DNA from: a bacterium
Lineage (GTDB): Bacteria > Bacteroidota > Ignavibacteria > UBA10030
NCBI GenBank assembly: GCA_043803945.1
Contig: JAZDJN010000104.1
Location: forward strand, 32,001 to 96,000
Reading direction: 5' to 3'
DNA length: 64,000 nucleotides
Shown piece by piece: positions 22,987 through 58,643 of this stretch (the stretch's first letter is position 1; each line of letters starts with the position of its first letter). Below the pieces are notes generated by a model. That model saw only the letters and a program-made list of their open reading frames with translations. It ran no database searches and was not told the DNA's origin. A program made the translations under genes and the position numbers.

Positions 22987-23119
22987 GCCACAGAGACTCA
23001 CCTGCCCGACTATGTAGATGCTATTGAGGCAGGCGGGGAGTTCATTGAGGTTGACAAATGTTGTTTAGAGAGTCAATACTTACAAAATATCTTCTCTGTG
23101 TTCTCCGTGACTCGGTGGC
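22987..23119. repeat. REP-like palindromic element with an inner insert
   Basis: GCCACAGAGACTCA ... CTCTGTGTTCTCCGTGACTCGGTGGC arms enclosing CCTGCC...GGCAGG. Confidence 0.55.
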
Positions 23120-23142
23120 AAATTCACCTTTCCACCAGATTT

Positions 23143-36692: not shown

Positions 36693-36710
36693 AATAGTGA
36701 TCGATCCTCC

Positions 36711-37181
36711 TTATAGGTACTTGCAATAAACTACCAAGCCGTCACCCGGAGAATAGAAGTCTCTGATCCGTGACGCCTCTGTGTAGTTGTTTTTTAGGTA
36801 GAACATTCGCGTGTTCTCATATTTCGGCAATGAGGAGGTTTCCGCAATAATGAGTGTCCCTCCTTTTGACTTCGCCAACTCTTCACAATGGAGCAACAAC
36901 TGCTTCCCGATTCCCTTTCCGTGGCAGGAGAGATCGACGGCAATCCAGTAAAGATCGTACGTGCTGACCGTCATCGGTGTGTGCCCCATACAATAATATC
37001 CCCGGACAATTCCTGGTTCCTCCACAAAGGTGTAGAGGATATAATCCTTCTGATGAGGATCGCCCGCTGCAACCTGCATGAGTTCAACAGCCACATCAAT
37101 TTCATTTGGGTTGAAGACCCGGGTCTCCTGGAGAATACTAGTGAGTGCTTCAATATCTTCTTTTTGAAATTTCCTGATCAT
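36711..37181 (-). CDS. GNAT N-acetyltransferase
   Basis: LYWIAV...HGKGIG acetyl-CoA motif, AETSS, FY. Confidence 0.88.
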   Translation of the reverse strand: MIRKFQKEDIEALTSILQETRVFNPNEIDVAVELMQVAAGDPHQKDYILYTFVEEPGIVRGYYCMGHTPMTVSTYDLYWIAVDLSCHGKGIGKQLLLHCEELAKSKGGTLIIAETSSLPKYENTRMFYLKNNYTEASRIRDFYSPGDGLVVYCKYL

Positions 37182-37189
37182 CGTTCCCT

Positions 37190-38290
37190 TTACGGAGCAC
37201 GTTCGAGCGCGTACTCCACAATCTTATTGACCATATCATCGAACGACAGGCCATACATCCTGGCGGACCGTGGAAATCCTGCATCAGTACTGATATCAGG
37301 ATTGGGATTGACTTCAATGACATAGAGTCTATTATGCTTATCCAACCGCATATCGACACGGGCATAGTCGCGGCATCCCATCAGCCGGTATGCCTGCAGG
37401 GCAATCTCTCTTGCTTCATGTTCCACATCGGGAGAGACGGATGCCGGACAGACACCCACAGTACCCTTGTACTCTTCTGTTCCTTCCATCCATTTCGCAT
37501 TGTAGGTGACAATCTTTGGGTAGTCCTGGGGGAGCGCGGAAAAATCAATTTCAGAGATCGGAAGAGCAATCGGACGTTTATTCCCGATCACGGCAATGTT
37601 TAGCTCACGTCCGTCGATATACTCTTCAACTAATGCCGGCTGCTCATAACGATGGCAGATATACTTCACTCGCTTACGCAACGCTGCGAATTCATAGACA
37701 ACGGAGTCGTTGGCGATACCCACACTGGCATCTTCGTGGAGGGGTTTCACAATCACGGGGAATCCCAGATCGAACTCTTCCTCCGTGAGATGGGTGAGAG
37801 TCCGATACAATGCGAATCGTGGAATACGCATTTTATGGAATCCGAGAATCTGTTTCGTGCGCACTTTATTCTGGCACAGTCCGAGCGTGAATGCCGAAGC
37901 GCCGGTATAGGGAATACCCATCAGTTCATAGACTCCGGCCACAAACATCTCATGAGTCGATTGATCTCCGACCGATTCGCAGAGATTGAAGATCAAATCG
38001 GGCTGTTTCTCTTCAATGAAGTCGATGAGGCGCTTGATATCGCTGTTCATATTGAAGAGCGAGGTACGATATCCAAATTTATGCAGAGCCTCCTGAACAT
38101 TCTGACGCTCTTGTAATACCCCCACCTCCGACATATCGATGGTTTTGGGTGTCGCAACGGCCAGCACTTCGGATCGGGTGATGGCAGCTTCGATCTTCCC
38201 GGACTCCGAAATAAATTTTCTTCCCGATCCCGTACTGATCGTAGGCTCGTTATAGATAATGGCAACATGAATCTTCTTCTTCATCTTCAC
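37190..38290 (-). CDS. D-Ala-D-Ala-ligase-like ATP-grasp protein
   Basis: FNLCE, IPYTG, VKPLHEDAS, EEYIDGRE, RVDMR, EVNPNP. Confidence 0.88.
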   Translation of the reverse strand: MKMKKKIHVAIIYNEPTISTGSGRKFISESGKIEAAITRSEVLAVATPKTIDMSEVGVLQERQNVQEALHKFGYRTSLFNMNSDIKRLIDFIEEKQPDLIFNLCESVGDQSTHEMFVAGVYELMGIPYTGASAFTLGLCQNKVRTKQILGFHKMRIPRFALYRTLTHLTEEEFDLGFPVIVKPLHEDASVGIANDSVVYEFAALRKRVKYICHRYEQPALVEEYIDGRELNIAVIGNKRPIALPISEIDFSALPQDYPKIVTYNAKWMEGTEEYKGTVGVCPASVSPDVEHEAREIALQAYRLMGCRDYARVDMRLDKHNRLYVIEVNPNPDISTDAGFPRSARMYGLSFDDMVNKIVEYALERAP

Positions 38291-38337
38291 CTTCCCTGCA
38301 CAACGTTCTTAATCAATGTCATCAGATTCATGGGCCA

Positions 38338-39429
38338 TTAGTTAATGTTTTGGCGTCGTATCGCGTGGCCGAGAACGGAACAGAGCATCTCATTGTAGGA
38401 AATTCCCGCCGCCCTGGCTGCCATTGGAAATGCGGAATGTTCATCCGGATTTGGCAGGATTCCCGGTAACGGATTCAACTCTATTATATGCGGGGTCCCG
38501 GCATCATCTAATCGTAAATCTATACGACACCAGTCTCGACAATTGAGTATTTTAAACGTTTTTCGACAAGTCTCTATAATTTTCTGTTCTAACTCCTGGC
38601 CAACTTTTGCCGGGCAGCTATACATTTCAATGGGATGATCCGGCAGATCCCATACCCATTTAGCCTCGTAGGAATAAATTGGATTTGCCCCTTCGGGCAG
38701 TTCGTTGAAGTGAATTTCTATAATAGGCAGAACATGGAGGTCGCCATCGTTGCCGAGCAGCGCTACAGTAAATTCCCGTCCGCTGAGAAATTTTTCGACA
38801 AGAGCCGGTTCATGGTAGTTATTGAGTACCCGAGTTACCTGTTCATGCAGTTCAGCCTCATTTTTCACAACCGAGGCGTTAACGACACCTTTGCTCGATC
38901 CCTCATGTAATGGTTTGACGATACATGGGAATGGGATTGTGAACTCTTGAAGCTCATCGATTCTTGTGATAATCCTGAACTCCGGGGTTGGAATGCGATG
39001 ATGGGAGAGAATTTCTTTTGCACGGGATTTATCGAGACAAATTCCAAGCGTCAGCGGATCGGATCCGGTGTAGGGGATTCCAAGCATATCGAGCATGGCG
39101 GGAATTTGTGCTTCACGGGAAGGACCGCGGAGTCCTTCTGCAATATTGAAGACAATATCTGGTTGAATCTGAAGAAACTTTTGGAAGGCATCCGTGTCAG
39201 CCTCGATCATTGTTACATCATGTTGCTCTTCGAGTGCGGCCTTAACGGCAAGGATGGTGTCTTCGGTATCCCATTCTGCATATGTGTCGTGGTTCGTCTT
39301 TTCTTGTTTCGTCGGTGACGATGTCGTGTGCGTACTATCCTCGTCATCGTTCAATCCATCGTTCGAACCATCGCCGACGCTGTCCTTTTTCATATTATAG
39401 ACAAGCGCGACATTCAAGCGCGGTACCAA
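38338..39429 (-). CDS. D-Ala-D-Ala-ligase-like ATP-grasp protein
   Basis: FNIAEG, IPYTGS, VKPLHEGSSKG, RIDLR, ELNPLPG. Confidence 0.88.
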   Translation of the reverse strand: MVPRLNVALVYNMKKDSVGDGSNDGLNDDEDSTHTTSSPTKQEKTNHDTYAEWDTEDTILAVKAALEEQHDVTMIEADTDAFQKFLQIQPDIVFNIAEGLRGPSREAQIPAMLDMLGIPYTGSDPLTLGICLDKSRAKEILSHHRIPTPEFRIITRIDELQEFTIPFPCIVKPLHEGSSKGVVNASVVKNEAELHEQVTRVLNNYHEPALVEKFLSGREFTVALLGNDGDLHVLPIIEIHFNELPEGANPIYSYEAKWVWDLPDHPIEMYSCPAKVGQELEQKIIETCRKTFKILNCRDWCRIDLRLDDAGTPHIIELNPLPGILPNPDEHSAFPMAARAAGISYNEMLCSVLGHAIRRQNIN

Positions 39430-45146: not shown

Positions 45147-45252
45147 GCAGACTCCACAAATAGTAAAAGTTATCGAGCGAGAGTTACTGCTTGAGAGCAG
45201 AGGCAAGATAGGGAAAGGGTGGGTGAATTTCAAATTGAAACGAACCATCATG

Positions 45253-45332
45253 CTTGATTCTAATTAGCACAATGCTATATTGCTTTCATCTTTTTAATAA
45301 ATGCCATTCAACAATTGATCAGACAATAATTA
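45253..45332 (+). promoter_or_regulatory. Promoter-like element, copy 1 (head of cassette array)
   Basis: TTGATT-16 nt-TATATT with TG extension; homologous to 51522-51596. Confidence 0.6.
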
Positions 45333-45469
45333 ACTAGGCATAGTCTTGACCAGCACTCATCAGAGAACTTGAAAAAAGGAATCACAGAATCAGAGAACGC
45401 AGGCGACGCGGTCATTCGTGCTCCCGACTCTGTTGTTAACTCCATACGATTTTAAGGCCATACCATTCT

Positions 45470-47371
45470 ATGAAAAACTGCATTGATTGCATTGTTAAGC
45501 CTTTAAGTGCCAAGATTTCCGATTTTCCGCTACTGATCGAGGCAAAATCCGCTGGCGATGCAACGAACACAAACAAACGTAGGAAGGAAGAGGCGCAGAA
45601 GATTCACCAGTTACGGGAGCAATATGGTACTTCTGTGAAGTTTCTGCTCTACCTGTGTGGATACTTTGAGCCTGGTTATCTGGGATACGAGGCAGCAGAA
45701 GGTATTGATTGGGTATGGGAACACCGGACTGGCGATTTTGATTCGCTGCTAACTCCACAGGATAAAAAAAAAGGCCAAACAGTACGTGATGCACTCGGAG
45801 ACTATGTAGCCACAGAAAGTCAGTCCAAGGAATATCATCGGGCTAATGCCCAAAGCCAAGCGGACTCGCTCAAGAGTGCTGTGGAACGCAACAGGTTAGG
45901 CCAGTTCTCCACTCCATTTCCTGTGGCATATGAAATGGTCGCGCGAACGCTAAAATCGTTTCCGGACAATGTCCCCATTGTTTTTCTTGAACCAGCCGTA
46001 GGTTCTGGTGTTTTTTTTAGTGCACTTCTATGCAACACAAGCCGGTCACGGATCGAATCTGCCATTGGATGCGAGATTGATCCAGCTTATGGAAATATTG
46101 CCAGGGCTATTTGGGAATCCTCCGGCCTTCAAGTTCTCGTTTGCGACTTTATCAGGTTTGCCTCTGATCCGGCTAACTTCGGAAGGTTCTCACTATTATG
46201 TACCAATCCACCGTACGTCAGACATCACCACCTTCAGCCCGAACAGAAGGTACGTCTTCAGTCTCTAGTGATGCAACGACTCGGACTTCAAGCAAGTGGT
46301 CTCTCTGGTCTTTATGTTTACTTTGTTCTTCTTGCCGACGCGCTTTTAGCAGAAGACGCAGTGGCATCATGGCTTCTTCCCGCAGAGTTCCTTTATGTTA
46401 ACTATGGACGTGTCCTTCGAGATTACTTGACCTCCCGCGTTACTCTTCTCTCGATCCACCATTTCGATCCTGACACCGTCCAATTTGACGATGCTCTCGT
46501 TTCATCATGCATCGTGACGTACCGGAAAACGCTCCCGTCGCGAGAATCAACTTGTGAGATGTCGTATGGTGAAAAGTTCCACGATCCCCAACAAAAGAAG
46601 ACTATTCCTTTTTCGGAGCTCCGTACTCTCAATAAGTGGACAATGTCGCACTTCGGAGGAGATACAGCACCTTCGGATACTCTGCGCCTCAAGGATTTGT
46701 TTTCCGTACGTCGTGGCATAGCAACCGGTGCAAATAAATTCTTCATTATCGACCGTGAAACAGCTATGCAATACGACATCCCGGAAGCCTATTTGAAACC
46801 CATTCTCCCAAGCCCACGCTTAATACGGGGAACAGTGATTGAGTCCAATGGTGATGGATTACCGAAGGTCGCGGATATTCGCTATTTATTGGATTGCTCC
46901 ATCCCGCCAGACCAAGTGAGGGAGCGACATCCCCGTCTGTGGGCTTATCTTCAGGAAGGCATTGCTATAGGCATTCCACAAGGTTACCTCTGCTCTCAGC
47001 GGGAAGTGTGGTACTATCAAGAGAGACGAAATCCGTCTCCTTTCCTATCATCGTACATGGGAAGGGCAAATGGTGGTCGAGAATGTCCAATCAGATTCTT
47101 TGTGAACTTCTCGTCTGCCATCGTAACAAATGTCTTCTTAAACCTTTACCCCAACCCTGAATTCGAAGAGTGCCTCCATGGTGACCGTGAGAGGATGCTT
47201 GAGTTCGGACATTTACTGAACAGCATACCGACAGAGTGTGTACTCCAAGCCGGACGTGCCTATGGAGGTGGATTGCATAAGATTGAGCCGAAGGAACTGC
47301 TCGAAGTACGACTGCCATACGCGCCCACTTGGCTGGAGGGAGCAGTCAAAAAACAGTTGATTCTGATATAA
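45470..47371 (+). CDS. Truncated XamI-like restriction endonuclease C-terminus fused to an N6-adenine methyltransferase
   Basis: LLIEAKSAGDATNTNKRRKEEA...YLGYEAAEGIDWVWEHR, then GQFSTP, FLEPAVGSG, TNPPY, RAYGGGLHKIEPKEL. Confidence 0.8.
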   Translation: MKNCIDCIVKPLSAKISDFPLLIEAKSAGDATNTNKRRKEEAQKIHQLREQYGTSVKFLLYLCGYFEPGYLGYEAAEGIDWVWEHRTGDFDSLLTPQDKKKGQTVRDALGDYVATESQSKEYHRANAQSQADSLKSAVERNRLGQFSTPFPVAYEMVARTLKSFPDNVPIVFLEPAVGSGVFFSALLCNTSRSRIESAIGCEIDPAYGNIARAIWESSGLQVLVCDFIRFASDPANFGRFSLLCTNPPYVRHHHLQPEQKVRLQSLVMQRLGLQASGLSGLYVYFVLLADALLAEDAVASWLLPAEFLYVNYGRVLRDYLTSRVTLLSIHHFDPDTVQFDDALVSSCIVTYRKTLPSRESTCEMSYGEKFHDPQQKKTIPFSELRTLNKWTMSHFGGDTAPSDTLRLKDLFSVRRGIATGANKFFIIDRETAMQYDIPEAYLKPILPSPRLIRGTVIESNGDGLPKVADIRYLLDCSIPPDQVRERHPRLWAYLQEGIAIGIPQGYLCSQREVWYYQERRNPSPFLSSYMGRANGGRECPIRFFVNFSSAIVTNVFLNLYPNPEFEECLHGDRERMLEFGHLLNSIPTECVLQAGRAYGGGLHKIEPKELLEVRLPYAPTWLEGAVKKQLILI

Positions 47372-47375
47372 GACT

Positions 47376-47425
47376 GTCCTAACAAGACAAGGGCTTACAG
47401 TTGCGCTTGGGTGATAATGTTATGC
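47376..47425 (+). repeat. Degenerate attC site
   Basis: GTCCTAAC just after the stop codon and GTTATGC at 47419; short, with inner boxes eroded. Confidence 0.45.
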
Positions 47426-47563
47426 GGTTGATCGAATGCTACTACTAAGAATATTGGGTGAGAAATCAGATCTCTTCTCCCAAACGATTGTGAATAATTC
47501 AGGGTGGATTGAAAATTTTGGAAAAAATGTATTTATGTTGCCATACGTGTCGACGATATTTTT

Positions 47564-47857
47564 ATGTCGGAGACTTCCATTCAGCCGCAGGAAATCGATT
47601 CGCTGATCACTGTGCTGAACCGTCAGGGTGCAACATTACAATTAGCAGTAATACCGCGTCGGCTGATAGAACAGCAAAATGCAAACGGCAAGATGAAAAA
47701 CGATCTGATCAACGATGATTGCACCCTGCGGGATGAACTGCGGCCACATCAGGAGCCTGAACGAGATCTTCCAACAAGTACGTGCATGGATGCTTGCGCC
47801 GCTGAAGCGCGAGTCGTTCAGCATCTGCTTGAAAAGGTAAAGAAGAAAAAGACATGA
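47564..47857 (+). CDS. Hypothetical protein (possibly a fragment)
   Basis: 97-aa ORF overlapping the next start (ATGA); no recognisable motif. Confidence 0.4.
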   Translation: MSETSIQPQEIDSLITVLNRQGATLQLAVIPRRLIEQQNANGKMKNDLINDDCTLRDELRPHQEPERDLPTSTCMDACAAEARVVQHLLEKVKKKKT

Positions 47858-48388
47858 ATCGAAGGCAATTTTCCAAGACGCTTGGCATAGGGGGTTTGGC
47901 GTTAGGAATGAACAGGACAGTTCCACTGTTTGCTGATGAAATGCCGCAGATTGCAATTACAATCGATGACCTCAATTTGTTCGGCGCATCCCAATCAGTT
48001 GCAAAGCAACGCAATCGTGCGCTGCTTAACGCCTTGCATGAGCACTCCAACTTGAAAGCCGCTGCGTTCATATGCGGCAAGAACATTGACAACGAAATAG
48101 GTCGAAGCCTTGTGAAGGAGTGGGGCAACGCTGGGCACCTCATCGCTAATCATACCTATTCACATTGGTATTACCCCAATTATAGCTTTGAGGATTACAC
48201 GCAAGATTTTCTTCGCCCAAGATGCTTTTACAGATTCTGTTTTTTCTGCTGCCCCCAATATAGTGCCTGCGGGGGAAAACATCATCTGGGCTCTGGCAAA
48301 AGAGTCTAGAAAGTTCGACGAACTATTGCGTTATCCAGGCGAAGATGGGGAGTATGAAAAGCCTAAAATGGATAAGCTTGGTCTATAA
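47854..48388 (+). pseudogene. Tat-exported polysaccharide deacetylase (NodB) with internal deletion/frameshift
   Basis: MNRRQF Tat signal, AITIDD, ANHTYSH; C-terminus (PAGENIIWALAK...RYPGEDG) lies in another frame after ~48210. Confidence 0.75.
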
Positions 48389-48419
48389 ATAGAGCAACCA
48401 CAATCGGCAAGCCATCAAG

Positions 48420-48662
48420 ATGAACAAACGACTCTGCTGGGATGCGAACAATATTATACTTCGAGTGTTTGGCAGTAGTGATGCCGTCCAGGTTGAATTT
48501 GCGAAGGGCTCGTTGGAAACAGCCGGACTTCATCCGTTCATCTTTTCACGTAAGGCAAGTCCAATTTCGATTGGCGGTCTCGACTACACATTGGAAAAGC
48601 CAAAGCAGGCAATCATACATGCGGTCACTATTAAATCAATTAGTACGTCGTGCGCAGCTTAA
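48420..48662 (+). pseudogene. Fragment resembling a DUF2007 protein
   Basis: EFAKGSLETAGLHPFIFS pattern; reading frame runs into an attC remnant. Confidence 0.35.
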
Positions 48663-48677
48663 CCGCGTCCGTAAAGC
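48654..48677 (+). repeat. attC 3' half remnant
   Basis: GCAGCTTAACCGCGTCCGTAAAGC matches attC ends at 52083 and 54460; core mutated to GTAAAGC. Confidence 0.55.
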
Positions 48678-48704
48678 AGCCACCCTTTTAAAGGAGAAAA
48701 TCCA

Positions 48705-49031
48705 ATGCGCGGAAATATTTGTCCTCAATGCGGGAAAGAGGTTATGCCCTATCGGCGGTTTTTTCGTGAGGCAGAACCATACAAAGTTTCTCAATGCGGC
48801 AGTTGTGATACTAAACTAAAACGCAGCCCACGAGTGTACCTCTTCCTTCTATTTATGTGCATTGTTCTTACGGTGATTAGCATTCCACTCGTTATTGCAA
48901 TGGTTGCGGCACATACTTCGTTTTGGATCATGTGGCCTGCATTAGTACTATGGGCTGCCTGTTGGGTATTACTGATCAACTACTCGTCATGGCGTTACAT
49001 TGGGTGGGTGGTTGTAAAGGATTCGAATTAA
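48705..49031 (+). CDS. Double zinc-ribbon membrane protein
   Basis: CPQC...CGSC followed by two TMs; AAGGAG RBS. Confidence 0.75.
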   Translation: MRGNICPQCGKEVMPYRRFFREAEPYKVSQCGSCDTKLKRSPRVYLFLLFMCIVLTVISIPLVIAMVAAHTSFWIMWPALVLWAACWVLLINYSSWRYIGWVVVKDSN

Positions 49032-49132
49032 TAAGAATATTTTCCAATCACTATTTATAGATGGCTGCCTTATCAGCAGTTCTTGCCAAAATAATGGTGA
49101 TCCATCTGTTAGGCGGCATCCTTAGCGTGCTA

Positions 49133-50104
49133 ATGAATGTCATGACATCAAACACTACAAACCGCTTATCTCTTACACGCTTTGCCTGGCTTTCGGTTGC
49201 CGCGGCCATTCTCACGATTGCACTCAAGACCATTGCGTATTTGCTAACAGGTTCGGTTGGCCTCCTTTCAGACGCGCTGGAATCGTTCGTCAATCTGATC
49301 GGCGCACTTATGGCGCTGGGAATGTTGACGATTGCCGCGCGCCCAGCCGATGAAGACCATGCCTACGGTCATAGTAAAGCCGAATACTTCTCAAGCGGTG
49401 TCGAGGGAACATTGATTCTGCTTGCCGCTGGAAGTATCGCCCTGGCGGCTATTCCCAGGCTGATTGCTCCAAAGCCACTTGAACAAGTTGGGCTGGGATT
49501 GGGGGTTTCGGTTGCGGCTTCACTTGTAAACTTGTTTGTCGCGCGGGTGTTGCTGCGGGCCGGTCAGCAGCATCATTCAATTACTCTTGAAGCTAATGCC
49601 CATCACTTGATGACGGATGTATGGACGTCGTTGGGTGTGTTAGTTGGGATCAGCGCAGTGGTACTCACCGGATGGGAACGACTCGACCCCATTGTGGCAT
49701 GCCTCGTTGCGGCTAACATCGTTTGGACCGGCGTTGGAATAGTACGCAAGTCCATATTAGGATTGATGGATACGGCGCTGCCAATGGAGGATCAACGAAA
49801 GTTACAACAAGTATTAGAACCGTATGTCCAGAGCGGAGTCCAGTTTCACGCACTTCGTACGCGCCAATCAGGAGCGCGGCAGTTTGTATCGTTTCACGTA
49901 CTAGTTCCCGGCCTATGGACAGTTCAGCGCGGCCATCAGCTATTAGAAAGCATAGAAACTGACATCTGCCATGCATTGCCGAATGTTACAGTCTTTACAC
50001 ATTTGGAATCTATCAGCGATCCTGCTTCATGGGATGATATAAGTTTAGACCGTAAAGAAATTCCGTCGAATGAATCACCGGCAAAGAAACGGAATCGTCC
50101 ATGA
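49133..50104 (+). CDS. Cation diffusion facilitator (FieF-like)
   Basis: [31 protein letters not shown]; follows GTTAGGC core at 49108. Confidence 0.92.
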
Positions 50105-51339
50105 CTTCTTTTTTAACATTATCCACCTGGAAGCTTCTCCAGACTTTCCTTGATCAGAAACGAAGCATGGTCGGACTGCTCGGAATGATCGTTTTGGTGG
50201 GTATGGGCGAGCATATGGCCGAGCGCTTCCTGCCGCTCTACCTGCAGCAACTGGCGCAAGCCTCAACCGCTGTATTAGCAATCGGTTTGCTGGCAGGCAT
50301 GGATGATTTGCTGTCCGCTCTCTACTCTTTTCCGGGTGGATATTTGAGTGACCGACTGGGCACGAAGCGCGCACTGCTTTTTTTTAATGCCCTCTCCATG
50401 ATCGGTTACCTGTGTGTTATCTTGATTCGTTCCTGGTGGGCAGTGCTGATCGGCGCCGCCTTTTTCATCTCCTGGTCGGCTATTTCACTGCCTGCCACGA
50501 TGGATCTATTGTCAAAGATGGTACCAAAGAATCGGCGTGCTATGGGAGTGTCGATAGTGTCGTTAGTTCGGCGGGTACCTAAAATGCTGGGACCGGTTGT
50601 AGGCGGTGCTTGCATCGCCATCTGGGGTGTCGAGCAGGGTGTGCGTATGGCGTTCATTCTGGCGCTGGTGCTCGCTCTGGTTGCCTCGGTATTACAGCAG
50701 TTGCTGATCACAGACGACTCGAAAGAAGCCAGAGTTCCCGAGCCCAATCCGATGCGGCTGTGGCGTGAGATGCCCGCCAATCTGAGGAATCTGCTCTGGT
50801 CGGATATTCTCATTCGATTCTGTGAGCGCATTCCGGACGCGTTCGTGGTTATCTGGGCCACACGATATGTGCTCCACCCCGTTTCGGAACTCACGTTCGG
50901 ATGGCTCTCCGCCATCGAAAACATTACCGCAGTGCTTGTGTATATCCCCGTGGCATACATGGCCGATCGCTTTGGCAAGAAACCTTTTGTGCTTATCACC
51001 TTCGTGTTCTTCACCTGCTTCCCGATGGCGCTTCTCTATTCGTCTTCGCTCGGTCCTTTGATCGCAGCGTTTGTGCTTCGTGGTCTCAAGGAATTTGGCG
51101 AGCCGACCCGCAAGGCGCTGATCATGGATCTGGCACCGGATGAGCGCAAAGCTGCGATGTTCGGATTGTACTATCTTGTTCGTGATGTGCTTGTTGCTTT
51201 TGCGGCTTTTGGCGGAGCGCTGCTCTGGCGTGTGTCGCCGGAACTGAACCTGAAGGTTGCGTTCGGCTTCGGAGTGTTAGGCACTTTCTGGTTCGCCTGC
51301 CGCGGCCGCGACTGCACGGTTCCACTCACAAATAATTAA
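50101..51339 (+). CDS. MFS transporter
   Basis: [11 protein letters not shown] and ADRFGKKP motif A; multiple TMs. Confidence 0.9.
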
Positions 51340-51521
51340 GATCGAACTCATCAAAATATTTGGAGATCGAAAGACTTAAAATGCTGGGAGGTCGCAAGAC
51401 TCGCCTACTTGCCAGCCTTGGGCTGGTGGCGAGGAGCTCTGCACGCGATCAATGAGCGTTTGCTCCTGACCAAATTTCTCTTTTATCAATTTTAGAAAAG
51501 GCGGCTAAATCACCTCTCACA

Positions 51522-51596
51522 CTTGACTCTGAATGGCACAATGTTATATTGCTCTCACTTTTTAAGAAAATCCATTCAACCGTTGGCAAATAATTA
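51522..51596 (+). promoter_or_regulatory. Promoter-like element, copy 2
   Basis: TTGACT-16 nt-TATATT with TG extension; homologous to 45253-45332. Confidence 0.6.
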
Positions 51597-51617
51597 GACA
51601 GCACACAGGAAAGAACT

Positions 51618-52010
51618 ATGGCATTTGAAGATAAACACCTTGATGTCTTACAGAACATTGAGTTCGCTATCGTGAGCGTGTATCACGAACACAACGATCT
51701 TAACGACTATGAAGTGATGAAGGCGTTGGATGCTTTAATCGATCACTATCGCCTAGAATCGCATGGGCATACTTCCAAAGAAAATCATCTTCCGCCGAAC
51801 GAAACTCTTGTCATTCAGAGAGTACAGGAGATGTGCGAACACAGGTTGGGTCGTAAAGATCTCGGCAGAATGAAAATGGATCCTTCAGGAGTTAAGACCG
51901 TAGAAGAAATTCTTTCATGCTTAAGAAAAATAAGGAAGTCAGTCGATAGATGGAATAAACAAGGAGGTAAGCAAGGGTATTTACGATTTGTGAAAGAATT
52001 TGTCAAGTAA
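51618..52010 (+). CDS. Hypothetical protein
   Basis: 130 aa; RBS AGGA; C-terminal SVDRWNKQGGKQGYLRFV. Confidence 0.75.
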   Translation: MAFEDKHLDVLQNIEFAIVSVYHEHNDLNDYEVMKALDALIDHYRLESHGHTSKENHLPPNETLVIQRVQEMCEHRLGRKDLGRMKMDPSGVKTVEEILSCLRKIRKSVDRWNKQGGKQGYLRFVKEFVK

Positions 52011-52022
52011 TGGCAAATCGTG

Positions 52023-52107
52023 GGACAACAGCGCAGTGAATGAACTTGTTTCGTTTAGTACAAGTTGATTGTTTTCAACGGTGCAGCTTATGCGCCACCT
52101 GTTAGGC
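52023..52107 (+). repeat. attC site (partly degenerate)
   Basis: GGACAAC ... GCAGCTTATGCGCCACCTGTTAGGC. Confidence 0.65.
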
Positions 52108-52218
52108 GGCGTACTATGCCAGCTCGTGAAGACCATGCGTTCAACATTCGCACGTCGACAGTCGCTCGGCGAGGAGGTCACCATGGTATATAACATGTTC
52201 TAAAAGGAGGGTACCAAA

Positions 52219-52560
52219 ATGCCGGAATATCGGATTAAGGTTGCGCCCGTTACAGTAGCGTATGCTGACGGGGAGAAAAACAAGCTTGTAGTGGAGTTCG
52301 CCATCCCAGGAGCGCCAACAGATACCATCGATCTGAAGCTCCTGCCAGATAGCGTCCACCTGACAGCACCAGCAAGGGACATCGAGTATGTTTCAGCACT
52401 GGCTTTAGCTTGGCCGGTGAAACCTGACAAAGCCGAAGCGATCTACGAAAACGGCCTGCTCCGAATTGAGGTGCCCTTCAAAGATCCGATGGAAGATGCT
52501 GTGAAGATCGCTATCAAAGCAGGTGGCGTGGAAATCAAGACCAAAGCAATCGAAGGCTGA
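52219..52560 (+). CDS. Hsp20/alpha-crystallin small heat-shock protein
   Basis: AIPG...AEAIYENGLLRIEVP; AAGGAGG RBS. Confidence 0.88.
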   Translation: MPEYRIKVAPVTVAYADGEKNKLVVEFAIPGAPTDTIDLKLLPDSVHLTAPARDIEYVSALALAWPVKPDKAEAIYENGLLRIEVPFKDPMEDAVKIAIKAGGVEIKTKAIEG

Positions 52561-52936
52561 TGACCCGTCAGTGGCTCCCCGCTATAAAGCAGCGGGGTAG
52601 GAAAGCTGATCCCGACAAGATCCGTCCCGATATGAGGCATCAGGACAAGTCGGGGCAGGTCGAATGAGCACCCCGTAAAATGCACGGGGTAAATGCGTAC
52701 GTTAAGCATGGCTGGCATAGGTGCAATGCAGGTTTGTAAGCCAGAGGTCGTTAGACTCCGATAGAGTCTAACGGACTCTATCGAGCTTATGAGCCATTGG
52801 CGAGACAAAGCTCGACTTCGTCGGCTTGGTTCGGATAGTACAATTTGTGAGCCAGAGGCGCAGGCGCAAAAGTTATCAGTGCGGCAGTCCCGAATAAAAA
52901 CATTTCGGGATAAACTTTAGCCGCCATCCGTTATAC
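52561..52936 (+). repeat. Expanded attC-like region packed with short palindromes
   Basis: At least 5 hairpins; ends GCCGCCATCCGTTATAC (R' core at 52930). Confidence 0.6.
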
Positions 52937-53019
52937 CGCTTGCGTTTTCAATGAAGCTATGTCCTAGCACGCAATGAACAGATGATTGATTTCTTACCAC
53001 ATTTTCAGGAATAACATAA

Positions 53020-53493
53020 ATGCAGTTCTCAAAGAAATGGTCAGTCTCTCGGCTCAAGCAGATAAGGCAGCGTCTTAAAGGGGCAAGAAAGCAAGGAGAT
53101 AATCCTCGAAAGAATGCAATCGAGACTCTTTTCCAACAAGTTGCTCGAGTTCCTTCACTCACATATGTTGGAAATGATCGTACAAAGCGCAACGCTATTC
53201 CTTTCCCTCGGGGAAAAACCAAGTATCCAGACTTTCGCTTCACTGATCAAAACAAGGTGATCGAAGTGATCGGTACTCACAGCCACGATGCACGCTACTC
53301 AACATGGCTTGCCAAGACTTATAACCGCATAGGCATTCGAGCATTGCTTATCTCTGAGACTGACATTGTTAACAACCCTCAATTTGTACATAATCGTGCA
53401 GTCAATTTCTATGGGCGATGCATAAAGTGCGGGAGTGCTCTCCAGTCGATGGGCACCGAGCCGCCTTATTGCCCTCAATGCGGTAACCTCTGA
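53020..53493 (+). CDS. Vsr/DUF559-like endonuclease with C-terminal zinc ribbon
   Basis: NAIE...YPDFRF...KVIEVIGTHSHD...IRALLISE; CIKC...CPQC. Confidence 0.6.
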   Translation: MQFSKKWSVSRLKQIRQRLKGARKQGDNPRKNAIETLFQQVARVPSLTYVGNDRTKRNAIPFPRGKTKYPDFRFTDQNKVIEVIGTHSHDARYSTWLAKTYNRIGIRALLISETDIVNNPQFVHNRAVNFYGRCIKCGSALQSMGTEPPYCPQCGNL

Positions 53494-53533
53494 AAAGAAC
53501 TACAATGTGCGACAACTTAACTTGGAGTAAATA

Positions 53534-54271
53534 ATGACCAGTTCACCTTCAGAAAAAATTCCTGTCCAATCGCCTTCTACTCAAGAATCATCGGCGCTGA
53601 AACAAACATTTATTGATAGACTCAAAGAGGACTATCTCAAGGCGCTATCTTCACTTGACAACGACGTGAAAAAGTTGGTTCAGAATGGTCAAGAAGCAAA
53701 AGCCTTGATGCTTTTTTCAGATAACCTAACGAAGATAATTGAGATAAAAGACACCCTGACTACATTCTATACTCTATTTTTGAACAATGTCTCCGTTCTA
53801 GAACGATTCGGATCAGAACGACTCAAACAACTCGGATATGAGCTGCAACCCATCTATGACACTCTCAAGGATGGCGATGCAGAACAAGCGGAAATTGAGC
53901 AGCATATTCTCAAGAACTTCCGCTCGCTGGGCATAAAGAAAACCCATTGGTATATCAAAGAAATCGTATTGACGGAAATTGAATATATGCTTGACACTCT
54001 TCAGATCCTCATTGAGCCTGACTTCCTTCCCCTGTTGGAATCGACACAATCAACCGGCGAAACAGAAGATAGGCCCGATCGCTACATACCCCCCGACGTC
54101 AAACTAGCAGTTTGGCGCAGAGATCAAGGTAAGTGCGTCCAATGTGGCTCAAAGGGTAAGCTGGAGTACGACCACATTATCCCGGTCTCTAAGGGTGGCT
54201 CCAACACAGAAAGGAACATTCAACTTCTGTGTGAGAAATGTAACCGTGAGAAGGCAACCAACATTCTTTGA
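53534..54271 (+). CDS. HNH endonuclease with helical N-terminal region
   Basis: VWRRDQGKCVQCG...EYDHIIPVSKGGSN...NIQLLCEKCN. Confidence 0.9.
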   Translation: MTSSPSEKIPVQSPSTQESSALKQTFIDRLKEDYLKALSSLDNDVKKLVQNGQEAKALMLFSDNLTKIIEIKDTLTTFYTLFLNNVSVLERFGSERLKQLGYELQPIYDTLKDGDAEQAEIEQHILKNFRSLGIKKTHWYIKEIVLTEIEYMLDTLQILIEPDFLPLLESTQSTGETEDRPDRYIPPDVKLAVWRRDQGKCVQCGSKGKLEYDHIIPVSKGGSNTERNIQLLCEKCNREKATNIL

Positions 54272-54323
54272 TGCGGCAATTGCGTACTGTCGCAGAACAT
54301 TTTTTTGCAATCGTGCGCAAGCG

Positions 54324-54483
54324 GTATAACCAGTCGCTGCTGCTGCTGACGGAATGAGCGTCGGTGCAATTTACATGGCGAGTAGAGGTTGAGTAGTTAA
54401 AGATAAAGTAGGTACAATGAACTTAGTTCGTTGGGTGCATGTTGCAAATATGCAGTGCCGCAGCTTAGCGCCCGTCGTTAGCC
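54324..54483 (+). repeat. attC site
   Basis: GTATAAC-CAGTCGCTGCTGC ... GCAGCTTAGCGCCCGTC-GTTAGCC. Confidence 0.85.
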
Positions 54484-54497
54484 ATTGGAGGTGAGTA

Positions 54498-55541
54498 ATG
54501 CTTTTTGAGTGGAAAGACGCAGGGAAAGATACATCAGATGTCGAGAAGTTGAAAGAGGTGCGACTCGCTGATTCTGGTCTTCGAGAACGAGACCTCGAGA
54601 ATCTCATCTCGAAGCGGATAGAGCAACTTGTTCGAACCGATCAACTCATGGTGATCATGCAGGAACGCTCTAGGCAAGAGGAGCCGGATATCCTTGCGTT
54701 AGACGAATCCGGTACCCTGTTCATCTTTGAGTTGAAACGGTGGGAAGGCAGGGGCGAAAATGTACTGCAGGTACTTCGCTATGGGCAAAAGTTTGGTCGA
54801 TATGAATATGATCGGCTGAATTATTTCTATCAGTCGTATAGTAGACATCGCCAGCAGGAGGTGACTCTGAAGGAGGCTCATAGAGAGTACTTCGGGCTCT
54901 CAGCATCCCTCGAAGAGAACCTCTTTAATATATCTCAGCAGTTCGTGGTTGTTACAAATGGCCTTGACTATGATACCTGGGATGCGATTGCTTTTTGGAA
55001 AGCCAAGGGACTCAATATCTTTCCTCTGATCTACAGATTATTTCGTCTTTCGGATAAACTTCACATTGATTTCGATCCTTACGGGCCAGTGCCTGATGCA
55101 CCAAAGGACTCAGAAAGTGGTCTTTATGTTGTAAATACGAACCTTACATATGATCCAGATGCTTACCAAGAGATGGTTACCGAGAGGAAAGGTGCGGCCT
55201 ACTACGACCGGAAATACGCAATTCAGAATATCAAGGCTGGCAACAGTGTTTGTCTATATCACGTCGGGGTTGGCGTTATTGGCATCGGCAAGGCAAAGAC
55301 AGATTACCAAAAAAAGGATATCGGTTCAGATTTAGCAGCAGAGTACTATGTCCCAATCGAATTCCAATACCTTGTCAATATCAACAGCGAGAATTGGACC
55401 AGCTTAGCAGTGCATGCTTGGGAGATAAACGCGAAATTTGGTACAAGTTATCGGTTTCGGCAGACTGTATTTCAACTACCTTACGAGTTTGCTGAATTCA
55501 TTAAAGATAAATTCAAGGAGAAAGGTGTGAAGAATGGCTAA
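54498..55541 (+). CDS. NucS/DUF91-like PD-(D/E)xK endonuclease with putative PUA/EVE-like C-terminal domain
   Basis: ERDLE, EPDILALD, IFELKR, QVLRY; C-terminal VNTN...IKAGNSVCLYHVGVGVIGIG. Confidence 0.75.
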   Translation: MLFEWKDAGKDTSDVEKLKEVRLADSGLRERDLENLISKRIEQLVRTDQLMVIMQERSRQEEPDILALDESGTLFIFELKRWEGRGENVLQVLRYGQKFGRYEYDRLNYFYQSYSRHRQQEVTLKEAHREYFGLSASLEENLFNISQQFVVVTNGLDYDTWDAIAFWKAKGLNIFPLIYRLFRLSDKLHIDFDPYGPVPDAPKDSESGLYVVNTNLTYDPDAYQEMVTERKGAAYYDRKYAIQNIKAGNSVCLYHVGVGVIGIGKAKTDYQKKDIGSDLAAEYYVPIEFQYLVNINSENWTSLAVHAWEINAKFGTSYRFRQTVFQLPYEFAEFIKDKFKEKGVKNG

Positions 55542-55639
55542 CCCGCGCATGCACCACGACACACCTTCGCGAAAAAGATTGATCACGTTAAAGAGATATA
55601 CAGCGCTCCGGTGTGCGGGTGATGCGCAGCCCGTTAGGC
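55536..55639 (+). repeat. attC site (canonical)
   Basis: GGCTAAC (contains the stop codon) CCGCGCATGCACC ... GGTGATGCGCAGCCC GTTAGGC. Confidence 0.9.
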
Positions 55640-55658
55640 GCGCCTAAATATAAAAAAT

Positions 55659-56888
55659 ATGAACAATATTGAAATTGAAAATAAACTTATTGAGGTGCTT
55701 GATCCAAACGGCAAGGCTTACAAGGATGCCTCGGTAAATTTATCAAAAATACCACCTCAATATCATGAAAATATTCTTAATGCTTTGCTGGCAGATTCTC
55801 TTTCAAAAGAATTAATATCTCAACCTGAATTTGCAAAAGGTCATGGTTATTCAATCTGGCTTGGAGATTCAGGAACTGGACTCACACCTGTTATGGCAGC
55901 TCAAGTGCTTATTCGTCGTACAAGCAGAACAAGTGACCCAAAAGAAGCCGTTGATTGGCTCAATCGTGTTCTTGCCACAAAGGAGGCTGATGGAAAAATC
56001 ATTCTTGCTCTTTGGGGGATTCTCGTAGAACAACCAATTCATTTCAATGAAGAATTATCCCTCATTGCTTTCTCGGATGTTACACCGTCACACAATAAAA
56101 AAGTAATTCTGGACTCGGCAAGCACTTATCCCATCGGTGTGTTTCAACCCTTTCCCTTCAGATCTCCATCGGCGGCACTTACTGCTAAAATTCATGTAAA
56201 TCCATTTATTCAACCATCTGAACTCGCTGGCTTGCCTCCTCAAGGACCGTTGCCCCAACATGAAATGCTTGAGTTAGCCCGACTTTCTCTTAATTGTGTG
56301 GGTACAGCTACTGCAATCGCAGCAGCCTCTTGGTTTCAATTTGATGATCCAGATATCCAAGATGCTGTTCTCTTTAGTGGTATCTCTACTCGTATTGGAT
56401 TAAAACACGACATTCTATTTATTAAAGACTCAAATATTGAGATTGAAGAGGCACAAAAAGTTGTTCGTTCAGTTCTCCGTCTCTCTGGTGATGTTGCCAA
56501 GCGTACGAAAATATCTCTTCAAAGATTTGATAGAGCCTGCAGACATTTTGATCTTAATGATAAGGCTCTTGATCTTGCAATTGCACTAGAATCTTTACTC
56601 ACTGAGGACGCTGGAGAAAATAATTTTAAGGTGGGTTTGCGGGCTGCACTACTATCGGCTGATAATCCAAAGGAACAAATCCGTGCTCGTTATTTAGTTA
56701 ATGGTCTTTATAAGATTCGTAACAAGGTTGTGCACCGCGGATATGCTCTAAAAGAAGTTACTATCAAGGAGAAGAAGATTCCGACTTCAGAAGTCATCAA
56801 TGAATCTGTAAAAATTGTCGCTCAAGTAATTAAAACTATCGCTGAGAAGGGAATTATTCCTGATTGGCATGAATACGAATTGGAATAG
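55659..56888 (+). CDS. HEPN-domain protein (ApeA-like)
   Basis: C-terminal DLAIALESLL and YKIRNKVVHRG (RxxxxH). Confidence 0.75.
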   Translation: MNNIEIENKLIEVLDPNGKAYKDASVNLSKIPPQYHENILNALLADSLSKELISQPEFAKGHGYSIWLGDSGTGLTPVMAAQVLIRRTSRTSDPKEAVDWLNRVLATKEADGKIILALWGILVEQPIHFNEELSLIAFSDVTPSHNKKVILDSASTYPIGVFQPFPFRSPSAALTAKIHVNPFIQPSELAGLPPQGPLPQHEMLELARLSLNCVGTATAIAAASWFQFDDPDIQDAVLFSGISTRIGLKHDILFIKDSNIEIEEAQKVVRSVLRLSGDVAKRTKISLQRFDRACRHFDLNDKALDLAIALESLLTEDAGENNFKVGLRAALLSADNPKEQIRARYLVNGLYKIRNKVVHRGYALKEVTIKEKKIPTSEVINESVKIVAQVIKTIAEKGIIPDWHEYELE

Positions 56889-56901
56889 TTCTTAAGCCCG
56901 C

Positions 56902-57166
56902 CTTCCAAGTAACTCACTGACTTGATACGGGAACGAGTTGATAGCCAAGCGATTCAGCTCTGTGTTTAAGATTATGAATGATGCGGGATTTGAATTTTTC
57001 CTCATAGTAATCGGCGCCGAGATCGACGTACTCGACTTTGAATTTCAGCATTTTGTAGACAATCCGTGCCAACTTGTGGATTGTAGCGGTGATAGCCTCC
57101 GGTCCACCGTGTTTTTCTCTTACTCTTCAGAAAGCACCAAGGGCACAATGAGCATTGGCGAAGGCG
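56902..57166 (-). mobile_element. IS110-family transposase 3' remnant with element end
   Basis: Manual translation ...ALGAF*RVREKHGGPEAITATIHKLARIVYKMLKFKVEYVDLGADYYEEKFKSRIIHNLKHRAESLGYQLVP; followed by GTTACTTGGAAG. Confidence 0.8.
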
Positions 57167-57293
57167 GACAAGCCCGCCTACGTTACAAAGCAAACTCCGG
57201 CGGGTAGGCGTGCCTCGTTAAGCATGATTTGCAGAGGTGCAGCGGCATTCGGTATGTTAACGAGTAATAACGATCCAAGAAAAGGTCAAACTC

Positions 57294-58643
57294 ATGACAA
57301 AACGGCAATGGTTCATTCGCGGATCTGTGTTTCTCTTCTTCCTGCTGCTGGCCATCAATTTGTATGTCTTCTTTACCCGCGAATGGGAATCTTCTTTCAC
57401 CCCAACATCGTATGCAACGCTCTACTACCCGCTCGATATCCCGACTATCCGTGAATGGAAGCTTGTGGAGCGCAATCGAATTCAACTGGACCTTGCCTGC
57501 ACGAATGAAATAGCCGAATGGAAAATCCTCACAGACGGCGAGAACGAACAAACCGCCACCGGAATGAAACCGTCGTTTCGCATCGACACAACATTCAGTA
57601 AGCTCCACACCTACAAGCTTATTCCAGTCGCCAATCAGGCAATTCAGCCGATCGAAATCTCCATCCGCTTCTACGGCGAAGAGTTCTATGCATCCCTCGG
57701 GATGAAGCACGCCGATGTCTATGTGGTACGCGCAAATGTACCGTGCGGTGAGTTCGAACAGTATTCTGTCGACGACTGGGTGGATGATTACCGGTATGTC
57801 GGTGAAGCGGCTCTGGCTGAAGTGAGCCGCATCTTGTATGATGAAGTGGGAATACGCGACACAGATGCGACGTTCACGCGAATGGAGAAACTCTTTCCCT
57901 ACCTGCGCAAAAAACTCAAAGGCTCGGGTGGCGTACCGAAGGACGAGGAACGATGGATGGATCCCTATCAACTGTACACCGAAATGGCTGCCGGCACCGG
58001 AAAAGGATGGTGTACGCAAAACGCCCAGGTGTGGGTATTCTGGGCAAACAGGGCAGGAATCCCTACGAGATTTGTTTTTGGCGCACGAACTCAAGACGAC
58101 AGGATCGTGTATACGGGGCATGCCTGGGCAGAATCATACATACGTGAACAATATCGGTGGGCATTTGTCGACCTGTCGCAAGCCGAACTCTACATCACCA
58201 ACAGAACAGGGCAGGTTCTCAACACGGCAGAGCTGTTTCATTTGAACCAGCAGAACGCGTTTGACAGTACGTTTGCCAGAATCTACTCAGACTGGATCTG
58301 GGAAAACCATTCCGGCTTTCCGGGAAAAGACACACTGGTGACGGTCCCCTTTGCACTGTGTAACCAATTAGTACGGAGCGAATTCACACCTCAGGCGATT
58401 CTTAAGTATCGACGGCCGCCGAACATTGAAGACGTTCGGGAGATCTATACGGGATTTATAAGCGACAGAACTTTTCTTCTGGGAAACATCGAGCGGTACC
58501 TTTTCAAACCTCAGTTAGCCTATTCCCTTTATCCGACGGAAGGTGGACACACATACTTTATCCGTCGTTTCCTGTTCTTCGCTTTGCTCACAAGTTTTGT
58601 ATTCTGGATGACGCTACTTGCGGTCGGTAGGGTCTGGAACTGA
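57294..58643 (+). CDS. Transglutaminase-like membrane-anchored protein
   Basis: N- and C-terminal TMs; GWCTQ, GHAWAE, FVDL (Cys-His-Asp triad). Confidence 0.75.
   Translation: MTKRQWFIRGSVFLFFLLLAINLYVFFTREWESSFTPTSYATLYYPLDIPTIREWKLVERNRIQLDLACTNEIAEWKILTDGENEQTATGMKPSFRIDTTFSKLHTYKLIPVANQAIQPIEISIRFYGEEFYASLGMKHADVYVVRANVPCGEFEQYSVDDWVDDYRYVGEAALAEVSRILYDEVGIRDTDATFTRMEKLFPYLRKKLKGSGGVPKDEERWMDPYQLYTEMAAGTGKGWCTQNAQVWVFWANRAGIPTRFVFGARTQDDRIVYTGHAWAESYIREQYRWAFVDLSQAELYITNRTGQVLNTAELFHLNQQNAFDSTFARIYSDWIWENHSGFPGKDTLVTVPFALCNQLVRSEFTPQAILKYRRPPNIEDVREIYTGFISDRTFLLGNIERYLFKPQLAYSLYPTEGGHTYFIRRFLFFALLTSFVFWMTLLAVGRVWN

Follow-up and report, generated by a model that had tools for sequence, protein, structure and literature searches.

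A probable short, eroded integron-type cassette array with nuclease-type genes in an Ignavibacteriales-like chromosome

The window analysed here is the whole 64-kb stretch of contig JAZDJN010000104.1 (positions 32,001 to 96,000), and our subject is a group of co-oriented genes at about 52.9-56.9 kb of it that are arranged like integron cassettes. They belong to a larger block in which all 13 long non-overlapping open reading frames (ORFs) between 45470 and 58643 are on the plus strand, whereas the flanks (45 kb on the left and 5 kb on the right) are almost entirely on the minus strand, as had been noticed in an earlier reading of the letters alone (the sequence-only reading). That reading took the 12 kb at 45253-57290 for a single integrase-less cassette array; we find integron-type structure for about 4 kb (52.9-56.9 kb) and not for the rest. 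It is fairly probable, in our view, that these 4 kb are a short, eroded integron-type cassette array with no integrase in the window, i.e., a remnant resembling a CALIN (cluster of attC sites lacking an integron integrase, for which IntegronFinder 2 by default needs two attC, according to the description of that program; PMC9024848). The evidence consists of one canonical attC site, three junctions of the G|TT type and two footprints of cassette circles.

The segment comprises two complete cassettes, A and B (together 52931-55633), and a third, C, cut by a fragment of an insertion sequence (IS) of the IS110 family; genes, cassettes, core heptamers and attC-type sites are on the plus strand unless stated otherwise. 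Cassette A (52931-54477) contains o157 (53020-53493), with a lead towards DUF559/Vsr-like proteins and a C-terminal zinc ribbon (atlas 0.92 to DUF559, template-modelling score 0.52-0.59), and a protein with an HNH domain at its end (53534-54271; Pfam HNH, E 4e-13). A terminator-like hairpin (54280-54295) and a degenerate attC-like end of 160 nt, recognised by the junction rule described below (54324-54483), follow. Cassette B (54478-55633) has one gene (54498-55541), preceded by a ribosome-binding site (GGAGGTGA, 54487-54494), whose product joins an N-terminal NucS-like PD-(D/E)xK domain to a C-terminal EVE/YTH/ASCH-like domain according to PADLOC (PDC-S11) and fold search; its canonical attC, of 104 nt, lies at 55536-55639. 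Cassette C (55634-56913) begins at the 55633 junction, has lost its 3' end and carries o409 (55659-56888), whose HEPN-like product has an RNKVVH motif towards the C-terminus. The IS110-family fragment, which is the last 70 residues of a 5'-truncated transposase (56914-57126, minus strand), starts 25 nt past the o409 stop codon.

As a reference for attC recognition, we located by hand 15 different sites behind cassette genes in the class 1 integron arrays of named plasmid records. All 15 share one layout, with a left arm made of R'' (7 nt), 5 nt and L'' (3 nt, an extra base and 4 nt), a variable centre, and a right arm made of L' (7 nt), 5-6 nt and R' (7 nt); 6 or 7 of the 7 L-box pairs are Watson-Crick. 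As attC of unequal length were not alignable by MAFFT, covariance models were grown iteratively from 4 well-aligned sites: R1 was built from 4 sites, R2 from 14 matches and R3 from 21 matches (attC of clinical class 1 integrons). Run with filters off on both strands of the 64 kb, R3 yields a sole significant match, 55536-55639 on the plus strand (23.8 bits, E 4.5e-4), which spans the full model and is bounded exactly by GGCTAAC and GTTAGGC; the next scores in the window are 11.7, 10.7, 9.0 and 8.6 bits (E 1.2 to 8.8). These coordinates are the ones that the sequence-only reading had named before the model was run. Regarding calibration, R2 recovers 5 of 8 unseen attC types (E 1e-8 to 0.075) and misses dfrA1, an unnamed 60-nt cassette site and qnrVC1, while R3 recovers two of three never-trained types (26.3 and 17.7 bits), dfrA1 still being missed. 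The best non-attC score of R3 is 13.9 bits in plasmid DNA (172 kb), and scores of 22 and 18.5 bits were obtained in related genomes (1.05 Mb, default filters). The 23.8 bits of 55536-55639 are inside the range of never-trained true sites and above every non-attC score seen. A crude scan combining AAC..GTT pairs with hairpin energy gave no discrimination. With Rfam, which has no attC family, there are no families at gathering score in the window and none at E <= 1 in 45200-57400.

The site at 55536-55639 has a left arm made of R'' (GGCTAAC), CCGCG and L'' (CAT[G]CACC), followed by ACGAC, and a right arm made of L' (GGTGATG), an 8-nt spacer (CGCAGCCC) and R' (GTTAGGC). Its L box pairs at 7 of 7 positions, which is matched by 5 of the 3594 AAC..GTT pairs found 50-170 nt apart in the window. 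The folding energy of the bottom strand is -21 kcal/mol (z -2.62, a value equalled by 1 of 200 shuffles), the top strand folding more weakly (z -1.86), and three single-base bulges (T, T, C) are on the 3' arm of the bottom strand, which is the arm that carries the extrahelical bases in known attC. The R box is unpaired in the unconstrained minimum-energy fold, and 6 of its 7 positions are paired in the model alignment. The upstream gene has its stop codon within R'', and 19 nt separate the end of R' from the next ATG. The arrangement R''(7)+5+L''(3+1+4)...L'(7)+spacer+R'(7) is identical to that of class 1 attC (aadA1, dfrA14, cmlA6, cupin gcu, etc.), with which the site also shares a CGAC motif after L'' and a stop codon in R''; as in the dfrA14, cmlA6 and cupin sites, the extra top-strand base at L'' position 4 is a G. 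There are also differences: the right spacer is 8 nt long (versus 5-6 nt in class 1 attC) and, unlike theirs, partly pairable (GCG/CGC), there are three bulged bases instead of two, and the host molecule is an Ignavibacteriales-like chromosome instead of a proteobacterial plasmid.

Since a cassette derives from a circle that is opened between G and TT, R'' should match the first bases of its own cassette and not the R' of its neighbour. Of 11 cassettes in the class 1 arrays, 8 conform to this rule, with perfect complementarity over 7-12 nt between the cassette start and its own R''; the remaining three involve cassettes of the aadA type, one of which follows a fused cassette. Cassettes A and B conform to the same rule. 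The start of cassette A (GTTATACCGCTTGCG, 52930-52944) is the exact reverse complement of 54316-54330 (15 nt), and that of cassette B (GTTAGCCATT, 54477-54486) is the exact reverse complement of 55533-55542 (10 nt), so that both pairs described in the sequence-only reading proved exact; each R'' fits its own cassette start better than it fits the adjacent R'. When the whole window is scanned, no GTT../..AAC pair other than the 15-nt one exceeds 11 nt. Those of 9-11 nt, taken as a class, do not stand out from chance (44 seen versus about 30 in shuffles), and the 10-nt pair thus counts only by its location. No other intergenic pair is above chance among the 42 GTT and 37 AAC intergenic positions of the block. 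Neither cassette C nor any of the units to the left of 52930 showed complementarity between start and own R'', and no R'' partner was found for the starts at 49108, 52101 and 55633; behind cassette C, there is no attC and no downstream complement of GTTAGGCGCGCC. Given the chained pattern of the junctions, 52930, 54477 and 55633 are true cassette junctions, although the attC of cassette A is degenerate. Likewise, 54324-54483 is a real cassette end despite failing both model and fold, because its R'' matches its own cassette start as in 8 of the 11 class 1 cassettes.

Seven attC cores had been proposed along the 12 kb. Heptamers resembling GTTRRRY are present at six of them, namely 47419 (GTTATGC), 49108 (GTTAGGC), 52101 (GTTAGGC), 52930 (GTTATAC), 54477 (GTTAGCC) and 55633 (GTTAGGC), whereas 48671 reads GTAAAGC and has no GTT core. 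As to the attC sites themselves, the one ending at 55633 passes both the covariance model and the fold test, and the other six do not. A check by attC covariance model and folding, set beforehand, is accordingly passed by 55536-55639 and failed on both counts by 54324-54483, the home-made model being less sensitive than that of IntegronFinder. GTTAGGC occurs five times in the window, always on the plus strand and within 45895-55639 (3.5 copies expected in the whole window, both strands), and two of the five copies are inside ORFs. GTTRRRY core strings overstate the size of an array, and real junctions are separated from look-alikes only by the model, the fold test and the start-to-own-R'' rule.

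Some of the remaining ends are nevertheless related in sequence to the accepted ones. An 85-nt intergenic element ending in GTTAGGC (52023-52107), which has no attC fold and is not among the R3 matches, is a relative of the ends at 54477 and 55633: its last 70 nt or so, up to 52107, are homologous to those preceding 54483 (68-column local alignment with 54416-54481, z 7.9), and 52081-52108 is identical to the attC right arm 55613-55640 at 21 of 28 nt. A 376-nt non-coding stretch on the plus strand (52561-52936), in which no Rfam family was detected, ends in the junction core GTTATAC (52930-52936), and its positions 52825-52847 share 19 of 23 nt with 52045-52067 (z 4.9). The GTTAGGC core at 49108-49114, with no attC behind it on sequence and folding evidence, has 15 of 16 nt in common with the 52101 junction (49102-49117 versus 52095-52110, CCAYCTGTTAGGCGGC, z 5.1), in a region of 70% identity over 50 nt. 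With an nhmmer profile of the two best-related elements, only weak extra copies were found (E 0.79 and 1.6), and none in relatives. Judged by these alignments, the sites ending at 52101, 52930, 54477 and 55633 form one sequence family, and attC of chromosomal arrays usually do so. We infer that two of its members, those at 52101 and 52930, have a greater age and a more advanced decay than the others, while 47419, 48671 and 49108 are unsupported as attC.

The left 7.5 kb of the block contain no verifiable attC. Their first ORF (45470-47371) joins the last 80-90 residues or so of a XamI-type restriction endonuclease (REase; RE_XamI positions 178-256 of 256 at residues 5-83, PADLOC REase_II 224-311 of 315) to a full-length type II methyltransferase (MTase; Eco57I MTase match, PADLOC MTase_II E 3e-123). 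The intact pairing of endonuclease and methyltransferase of a type II restriction-modification (R-M) system is not found there, and the ORF appears to be a 5'-truncated R-M remnant or an orphan MTase. Then come, at 47564-49031, the small ORFs o97, o80 and o108, to which no family was assigned (a zinc ribbon and membrane helices are seen among the small ORFs), and a polysaccharide deacetylase (47854-48309) with a twin-arginine-like leader. The latter covers only positions 7-85 of 124 of Polysacc_deac_1, with a possible continuation in another frame (ORF 48188-48388), and reads as a frameshifted pseudogene. An MntE-like metal-efflux transporter of the CDF family (49133-50104; Pfam Cation_efflux and ZT_dimer, TIGR01297 at 222 bits, above cut-off) is followed by an MFS transporter (50101-51339; Pfam MFS_1), whose start overlaps the CDF stop. 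The last two genes encode o130 (51618-52010), a small protein with no family at E <= 0.01 and sub-threshold matches only, and a small Hsp20/alpha-crystallin-like protein (52219-52560; NCBIfam Hsp20 E 8.9e-11, below cut-off; Pfam HSP20 E 0.0017). By its gene content, this part is ordinary variable-island material, not demonstrably cassette-structured.

A direct repeat of 70 nt (both copies on the plus strand) marks the left part. Copy 1 (45248-45317) abuts the start codon of the flanking amidohydrolase gene and forms the left edge of the block, and copy 2 (51517-51585) ends in an inverted pair, ATTCAAC-C-GTTGG, 30 nt before o130. The copies, which bracket 6.3 kb, are 83-84% identical (83% over the 60 nt at 51522-51580, E 4e-10), and nothing between them passes any attC test. 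Each has a strong sigma-70-like site (extended -10), and the two are the best of the block, at 45254-45281 (9 of 12 positions, with TG extension) and 51523-51550 (10 of 12, with TG). Three readings of the repeat are conceivable: duplication of a promoter, termini of an integrated element, or a module resembling attI.

The flanking amidohydrolase has 383 relatives in species-representative genomes; the best 80, which mostly come from Ignavibacteriales or Bacteroidota metagenome-assembled genomes and to which it is at most 74-76% identical, define the related loci used here. No tblastn match (more than 60 residues, E <= 1e-8) was found in these 80 loci for the proteins of the block, the transglutaminase-like protein, o129 or the S46 peptidase, so that the block is lineage-specific; the 70-nt repeat is also absent from them. 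In the 17 related loci showing both pyrG and the amidohydrolase gene, the gap between the two is 0.8-5.4 kb, versus 16.9 kb in the window. It contains TPR proteins and proteins sorted by the type IX secretion system, and a scan of 38 ORFs in these gaps detected no integrase, nuclease or integron features.

Several observations count against a cassette array at 52.9-56.9 kb. Only one site passes the attC model, whereas two are needed by the default of IntegronFinder 2 as its authors describe it. Under R2 (filters off), 55536-55639 is the top match of the block at 13.3 bits (E 0.14 in 13 kb), whereas true attC that had been held out score 18.8-45 bits with this model; R1 and R2 with default filters report nothing in the window. 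The 22-bit false positive of R3 (E 0.024) lies within the amidohydrolase gene, a housekeeping gene, of a relative (L049:387-484); the R3 E-values are thus optimistic, and this match is a useful false-positive benchmark for the attC model. One of the bases bulged on the bottom strand of 55536-55639 is C, not G, the same C bulge being clear in three of the 15 reference sites (cupin, cmlA6 and dfrA14). At the end of cassette A, 54324-54483 scores 6.2 bits with R3, among random matches, folds no better than shuffles (z -0.62 for its first 150 nt) and has an L box of 5/7, reached or exceeded by 7% of chance pairs; the three longer related elements have no conserved hairpin (consensus -2 kcal/mol). 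A complete integron (intI, attI and the cassette promoter Pc) was not found in the 64 kb analysed of the 134,646-nt contig: as the sequence-only reading had stated for tyrosine recombinases, the Phage_integrase profile has no match among the 51 long ORFs of the window, and the best IntI1 tblastn match in the 64 kb has an E-value of 1.1. There is likewise no attI for the array. Finally, the insertion can be neither dated nor delimited from the 80 relatives, whose distance is too great, no close relative being present among the genomes searched.

Could the array nonetheless be larger than 4 kb? One reading keeps the whole of 45253-57290 as a single integrase-less array, with at least seven attC too divergent for a model trained on proteobacterial sites. 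The genes are indeed co-oriented and compact, all five GTTAGGC strings are on the plus strand inside the block, the 49108 and 52101 junctions are nearly identical (15 of 16 nt), base composition is mosaic (GC 0.40 to 0.52 per kb), and R3 still misses one of the three never-trained true attC types. However, there is no fold signal at 47377-47425 (z +0.78), 49035-49114 (z -0.87) or 52011-52107 (z 0.03), and the L boxes of the two sites that could be tested, 47377-47425 (2/7; R3 8.6 bits, E 8.8) and 52023-52107 (3/7), are typical of chance pairs (49108, having no usable AAC partner, was outside this test). In addition, 48671 has no GTT core, no start is complementary to its own R'' left of 52930, the first gene on the left is a 1.9-kb R-M gene that has lost its 5' part, and the 2.2-kb unit of two transporters has no attC after it. 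We therefore regard an array of the full 12 kb as distinctly unlikely. Very unlikely, in our estimation, is a sedentary chromosomal integron lineage of Ignavibacteriales with non-canonical, drifted sites, an array serviced in trans and the repeat as attI plus Pc. Under such a scheme, the elements of approximately 85 nt that terminate at 52107, 52936 and 54483, and have in common a 23-nt core and a 3' end of the form GCAGCTTA-GCGCC-N4-GTTAG, may be recombination sites without an L-box hairpin; 51517-51585 (duplicated at 45248-45317) may be a combined attI and Pc module; and 51.5-56.9 kb, perhaps the whole 12 kb, may be an array served by an integrase encoded elsewhere.

Other explanations concern the nature of the 4 kb themselves. 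There may never have been a complete integron at the locus: an integrase from elsewhere would have used a secondary GTT site (52930) to place cassette A, whose attC would then have received the later cassettes. In class 1 integrons, cassettes are known to enter secondary sites too. Upstream of 52930, neither a fold nor an L box of attC type is seen, there is no intI remnant, and the pyrG-amidohydrolase gap of the 17 related loci is free of integrase and integron features. This scenario is unlikely, since the element at 52930 shares the 23-nt motif and a similar 3' end with the elements at 52101 and 54477, as would suit a decayed attC more than a secondary site hit at random. It is also quite unlikely that no integron biology is involved and that the block is a generic variable or defence island, arisen by other means such as IS110 activity or as an element bounded by the 70-nt repeats. 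In that case, the 104-nt hairpin would be a palindrome of terminator type or due to chance, and the 15-nt inverted repeat would represent the termini of a small transposon. An IS110 fragment does lie at the right edge, direct repeats do bracket 6.3 kb, there is a single model match with E-values that are optimistic, and no integrase is present. On the other hand, this match spans the whole attC model with exact R'' and R' ends at coordinates named beforehand, and has the canonical 7+5+8 layout, its extra base being located at L'' position 4 as it is in all 15 reference sites. Transposon ends would also leave unexplained the GTTAGCC core located 147 nt past the right arm, as well as its 10-nt match to the next R''. 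We rejected them because no target-site duplication flanks 52930 and 54330 and because the chained pattern fits the cassette rule.

If the 4 kb are an eroded cassette array, as we favour, its history may be outlined as follows. An integron integrase, encoded elsewhere or since lost, would have inserted the cassettes one at a time by recombination of the folded bottom strand of attC, and the complementarity between R'' and cassette start is the footprint of circle insertion by cleavage between G and TT. With no local integrase, the array would then have decayed: the attC of cassette A would have lost its L-box pairing and that of cassette C, with the end of the array, would have been removed by an IS110 insertion and a later deletion, the IS110 element itself becoming truncated. 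Transcription probably enters from the promoter-like site at 51523-51550.

The IS110 fragment has matches in 253 plasmid records (best identity 58%, E 9e-18). A member of the attC-targeting IS1111-attC group was considered and rejected, as tblastn with ISPa62 and IS5075 found nothing there; the fragment comes from another IS110-family member. In one of our training loci (NZ_CP143525.1; L082:9839-11281), the IS110-family element ISPa62 lies inside the aadA1 attC, whose R'' and spacer it replaces, providing a natural case of attC-targeting insertion.

Regarding gene content, the nuclease and R-M domains proposed in the sequence-only reading were borne out. Profiles support four of them in the 12 kb (the XamI-type REase tail, the Eco57I-type MTase, HNH and the NucS-like PD-(D/E)xK domain of PDC-S11 type), and there are two leads, DUF559-like and HEPN-like. 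The cassette B protein is the best characterised in silico. Five PADLOC PDC-S11 profiles match it (best E 2e-22), the match being partial (residues 13-201 of 347, profile positions 9-199 of 379), NucS is matched weakly, and the D...E-x-K motif is found in the ALDESGTLFIFELKR region. In its AlphaFold model (predicted local distance difference test score 82, from an alignment of 28 sequences), the nuclease part has a fold match to EndoMS/NucS, and the C-terminal domain matches EVE proteins (2gbs, 2eve, PH1033), VcaM4I, YTH readers of N6-methyladenosine and ASCH, all with E-values in the range of 4e-5 to 4e-3; VcaM4I is a modification-dependent endonuclease. PDC-S11 corresponds to 'Madara', presented in a preprint as modification-dependent and active against Tevenvirinae with hypermodified DNA (bioRxiv 10.64898/2026.09.05.749240). 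As the fold matches are of EVE/YTH type and PDC-S11 is reported to depend on modification, cassette B is predicted to encode a type IV-like enzyme that would read a modified base and cut with its PD-(D/E)xK domain. Like Madara, it is a single gene, with an N-terminal NucS-like domain matching the five profiles; what differs is that the profile match stops at residue 201 and that the C-terminal EVE/YTH-like domain is known from the fold search of the cassette B protein.

We found 601 homologues of the cassette B protein, up to 86% identical, those with a named source including Ferrimonas (64%), Desulfobacteraceae (71%, partial) and Scalinduaceae (65%, partial). They are spread wider and are closer than the relatives of the flanking core gene, which fits horizontal movement. 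In plasmids, only distant homologues of the cassette B protein and of o409 were detected, none in an integron context. One plasmid homologue of o409 (E 3e-24) is annotated as HEPN; o409 itself has a sub-threshold Pfam match to HEPN_RiboL-PSP (E 0.038), and its nearest named atlas clusters include HEPN_Apea (0.88, a lead only). Cassettes A (DUF559-like and HNH) and C (HEPN-like) carry weaker nuclease candidates than B, and the cargo looks like anti-phage nucleases of one or two genes each. A defence character of the cassette genes is plausible, because they are of nuclease type and one of them matches a PADLOC defence candidate; the defence-island view of the sequence-only reading can be kept to this extent for the 4 kb.

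Like a CALIN, the locus shows co-oriented cassettes with attC at their 3' ends and no integrase nearby, is chromosomal and may be read as a degraded integron. It differs in that its second site is recognised by the junction rule only, with a home-made model being used, and in its small size within a larger non-cassette island: there are two or three cassettes, while the 2961 CALIN counted in complete genomes have almost 6 attC each on average (PMC9024848). According to the same paper, complete integrons had already been found in Chlorobi and Ignavibacteriae. The locus is a small, decayed example of an already known kind of element in an under-sampled lineage, and is far smaller than first described. 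It shows the canonical proteobacterial attC layout unchanged in an Ignavibacteriales-like chromosome, a lineage in which few integrons have been described. Two preprints deal with defence genes carried by integron cassettes (bioRxiv 10.1101/2024.07.02.601686 and 10.1101/2024.07.02.601719). The resemblance to the anti-phage cassettes of sedentary and mobile integrons treated there lies in compact defence candidates of one or two genes (here predicted from sequence) that form cassettes; the lineage is another one, and the array is decayed and has no integrase. The present cassettes, with their compact nuclease-type candidates, contribute one more observation to the recent view that anti-phage genes are stored in integron cassettes, and do not alter this view.

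A few additional observations concern other parts of the window. The non-coding stretch after the Hsp20-like gene (380 nt) folds at -70 kcal/mol and contains two GC-rich hairpins that are alike, CCCCGCTATAAAGCAGCGGGG (around 52577-52597) and CCCCGTAAAATGCACGGGG (around 52670-52688). It also holds one copy (52700-52725) of a 26-nt repeat, CGTTAAGCATG..T.GCA.AGGTGCA, with a GTTAAGC core, whose other copy (57216-57241, 85% identical) is located just before the transglutaminase-like gene; these copies possibly mark where related cassettes, now lost, once began.

Elsewhere, the window consists of ordinary chromosomal DNA, including an exopolysaccharide cluster, argS, accD, tsaDE, SprA, lptFG and recG. 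At 21351-29970 (minus strand), a response regulator with a PglZ domain adjoins an SprA-like protein of 2275 residues; the two resemble the type IX secretion pair of a PorX-like regulator and SprA rather than a component of BREX (bacteriophage exclusion). A cluster at 35532-39429 (minus strand), encoding a radical SAM enzyme similar to lysine-2,3-aminomutase, a GNAT acetyltransferase and two ATP-grasp paralogues similar to D-Ala-D-Ala ligase, is syntenic in every relative whose locus reaches there. Finally, a long cluster of exopolysaccharide/O-antigen type at 1906-15727 (minus strand) comprises glycosyltransferases, Wzy-like, Wzx-like and Wzz/GNVR proteins, together with a Poly_export protein, a UDP-GlcNAc 2-epimerase and an enzyme similar to GDP-mannose dehydratase.

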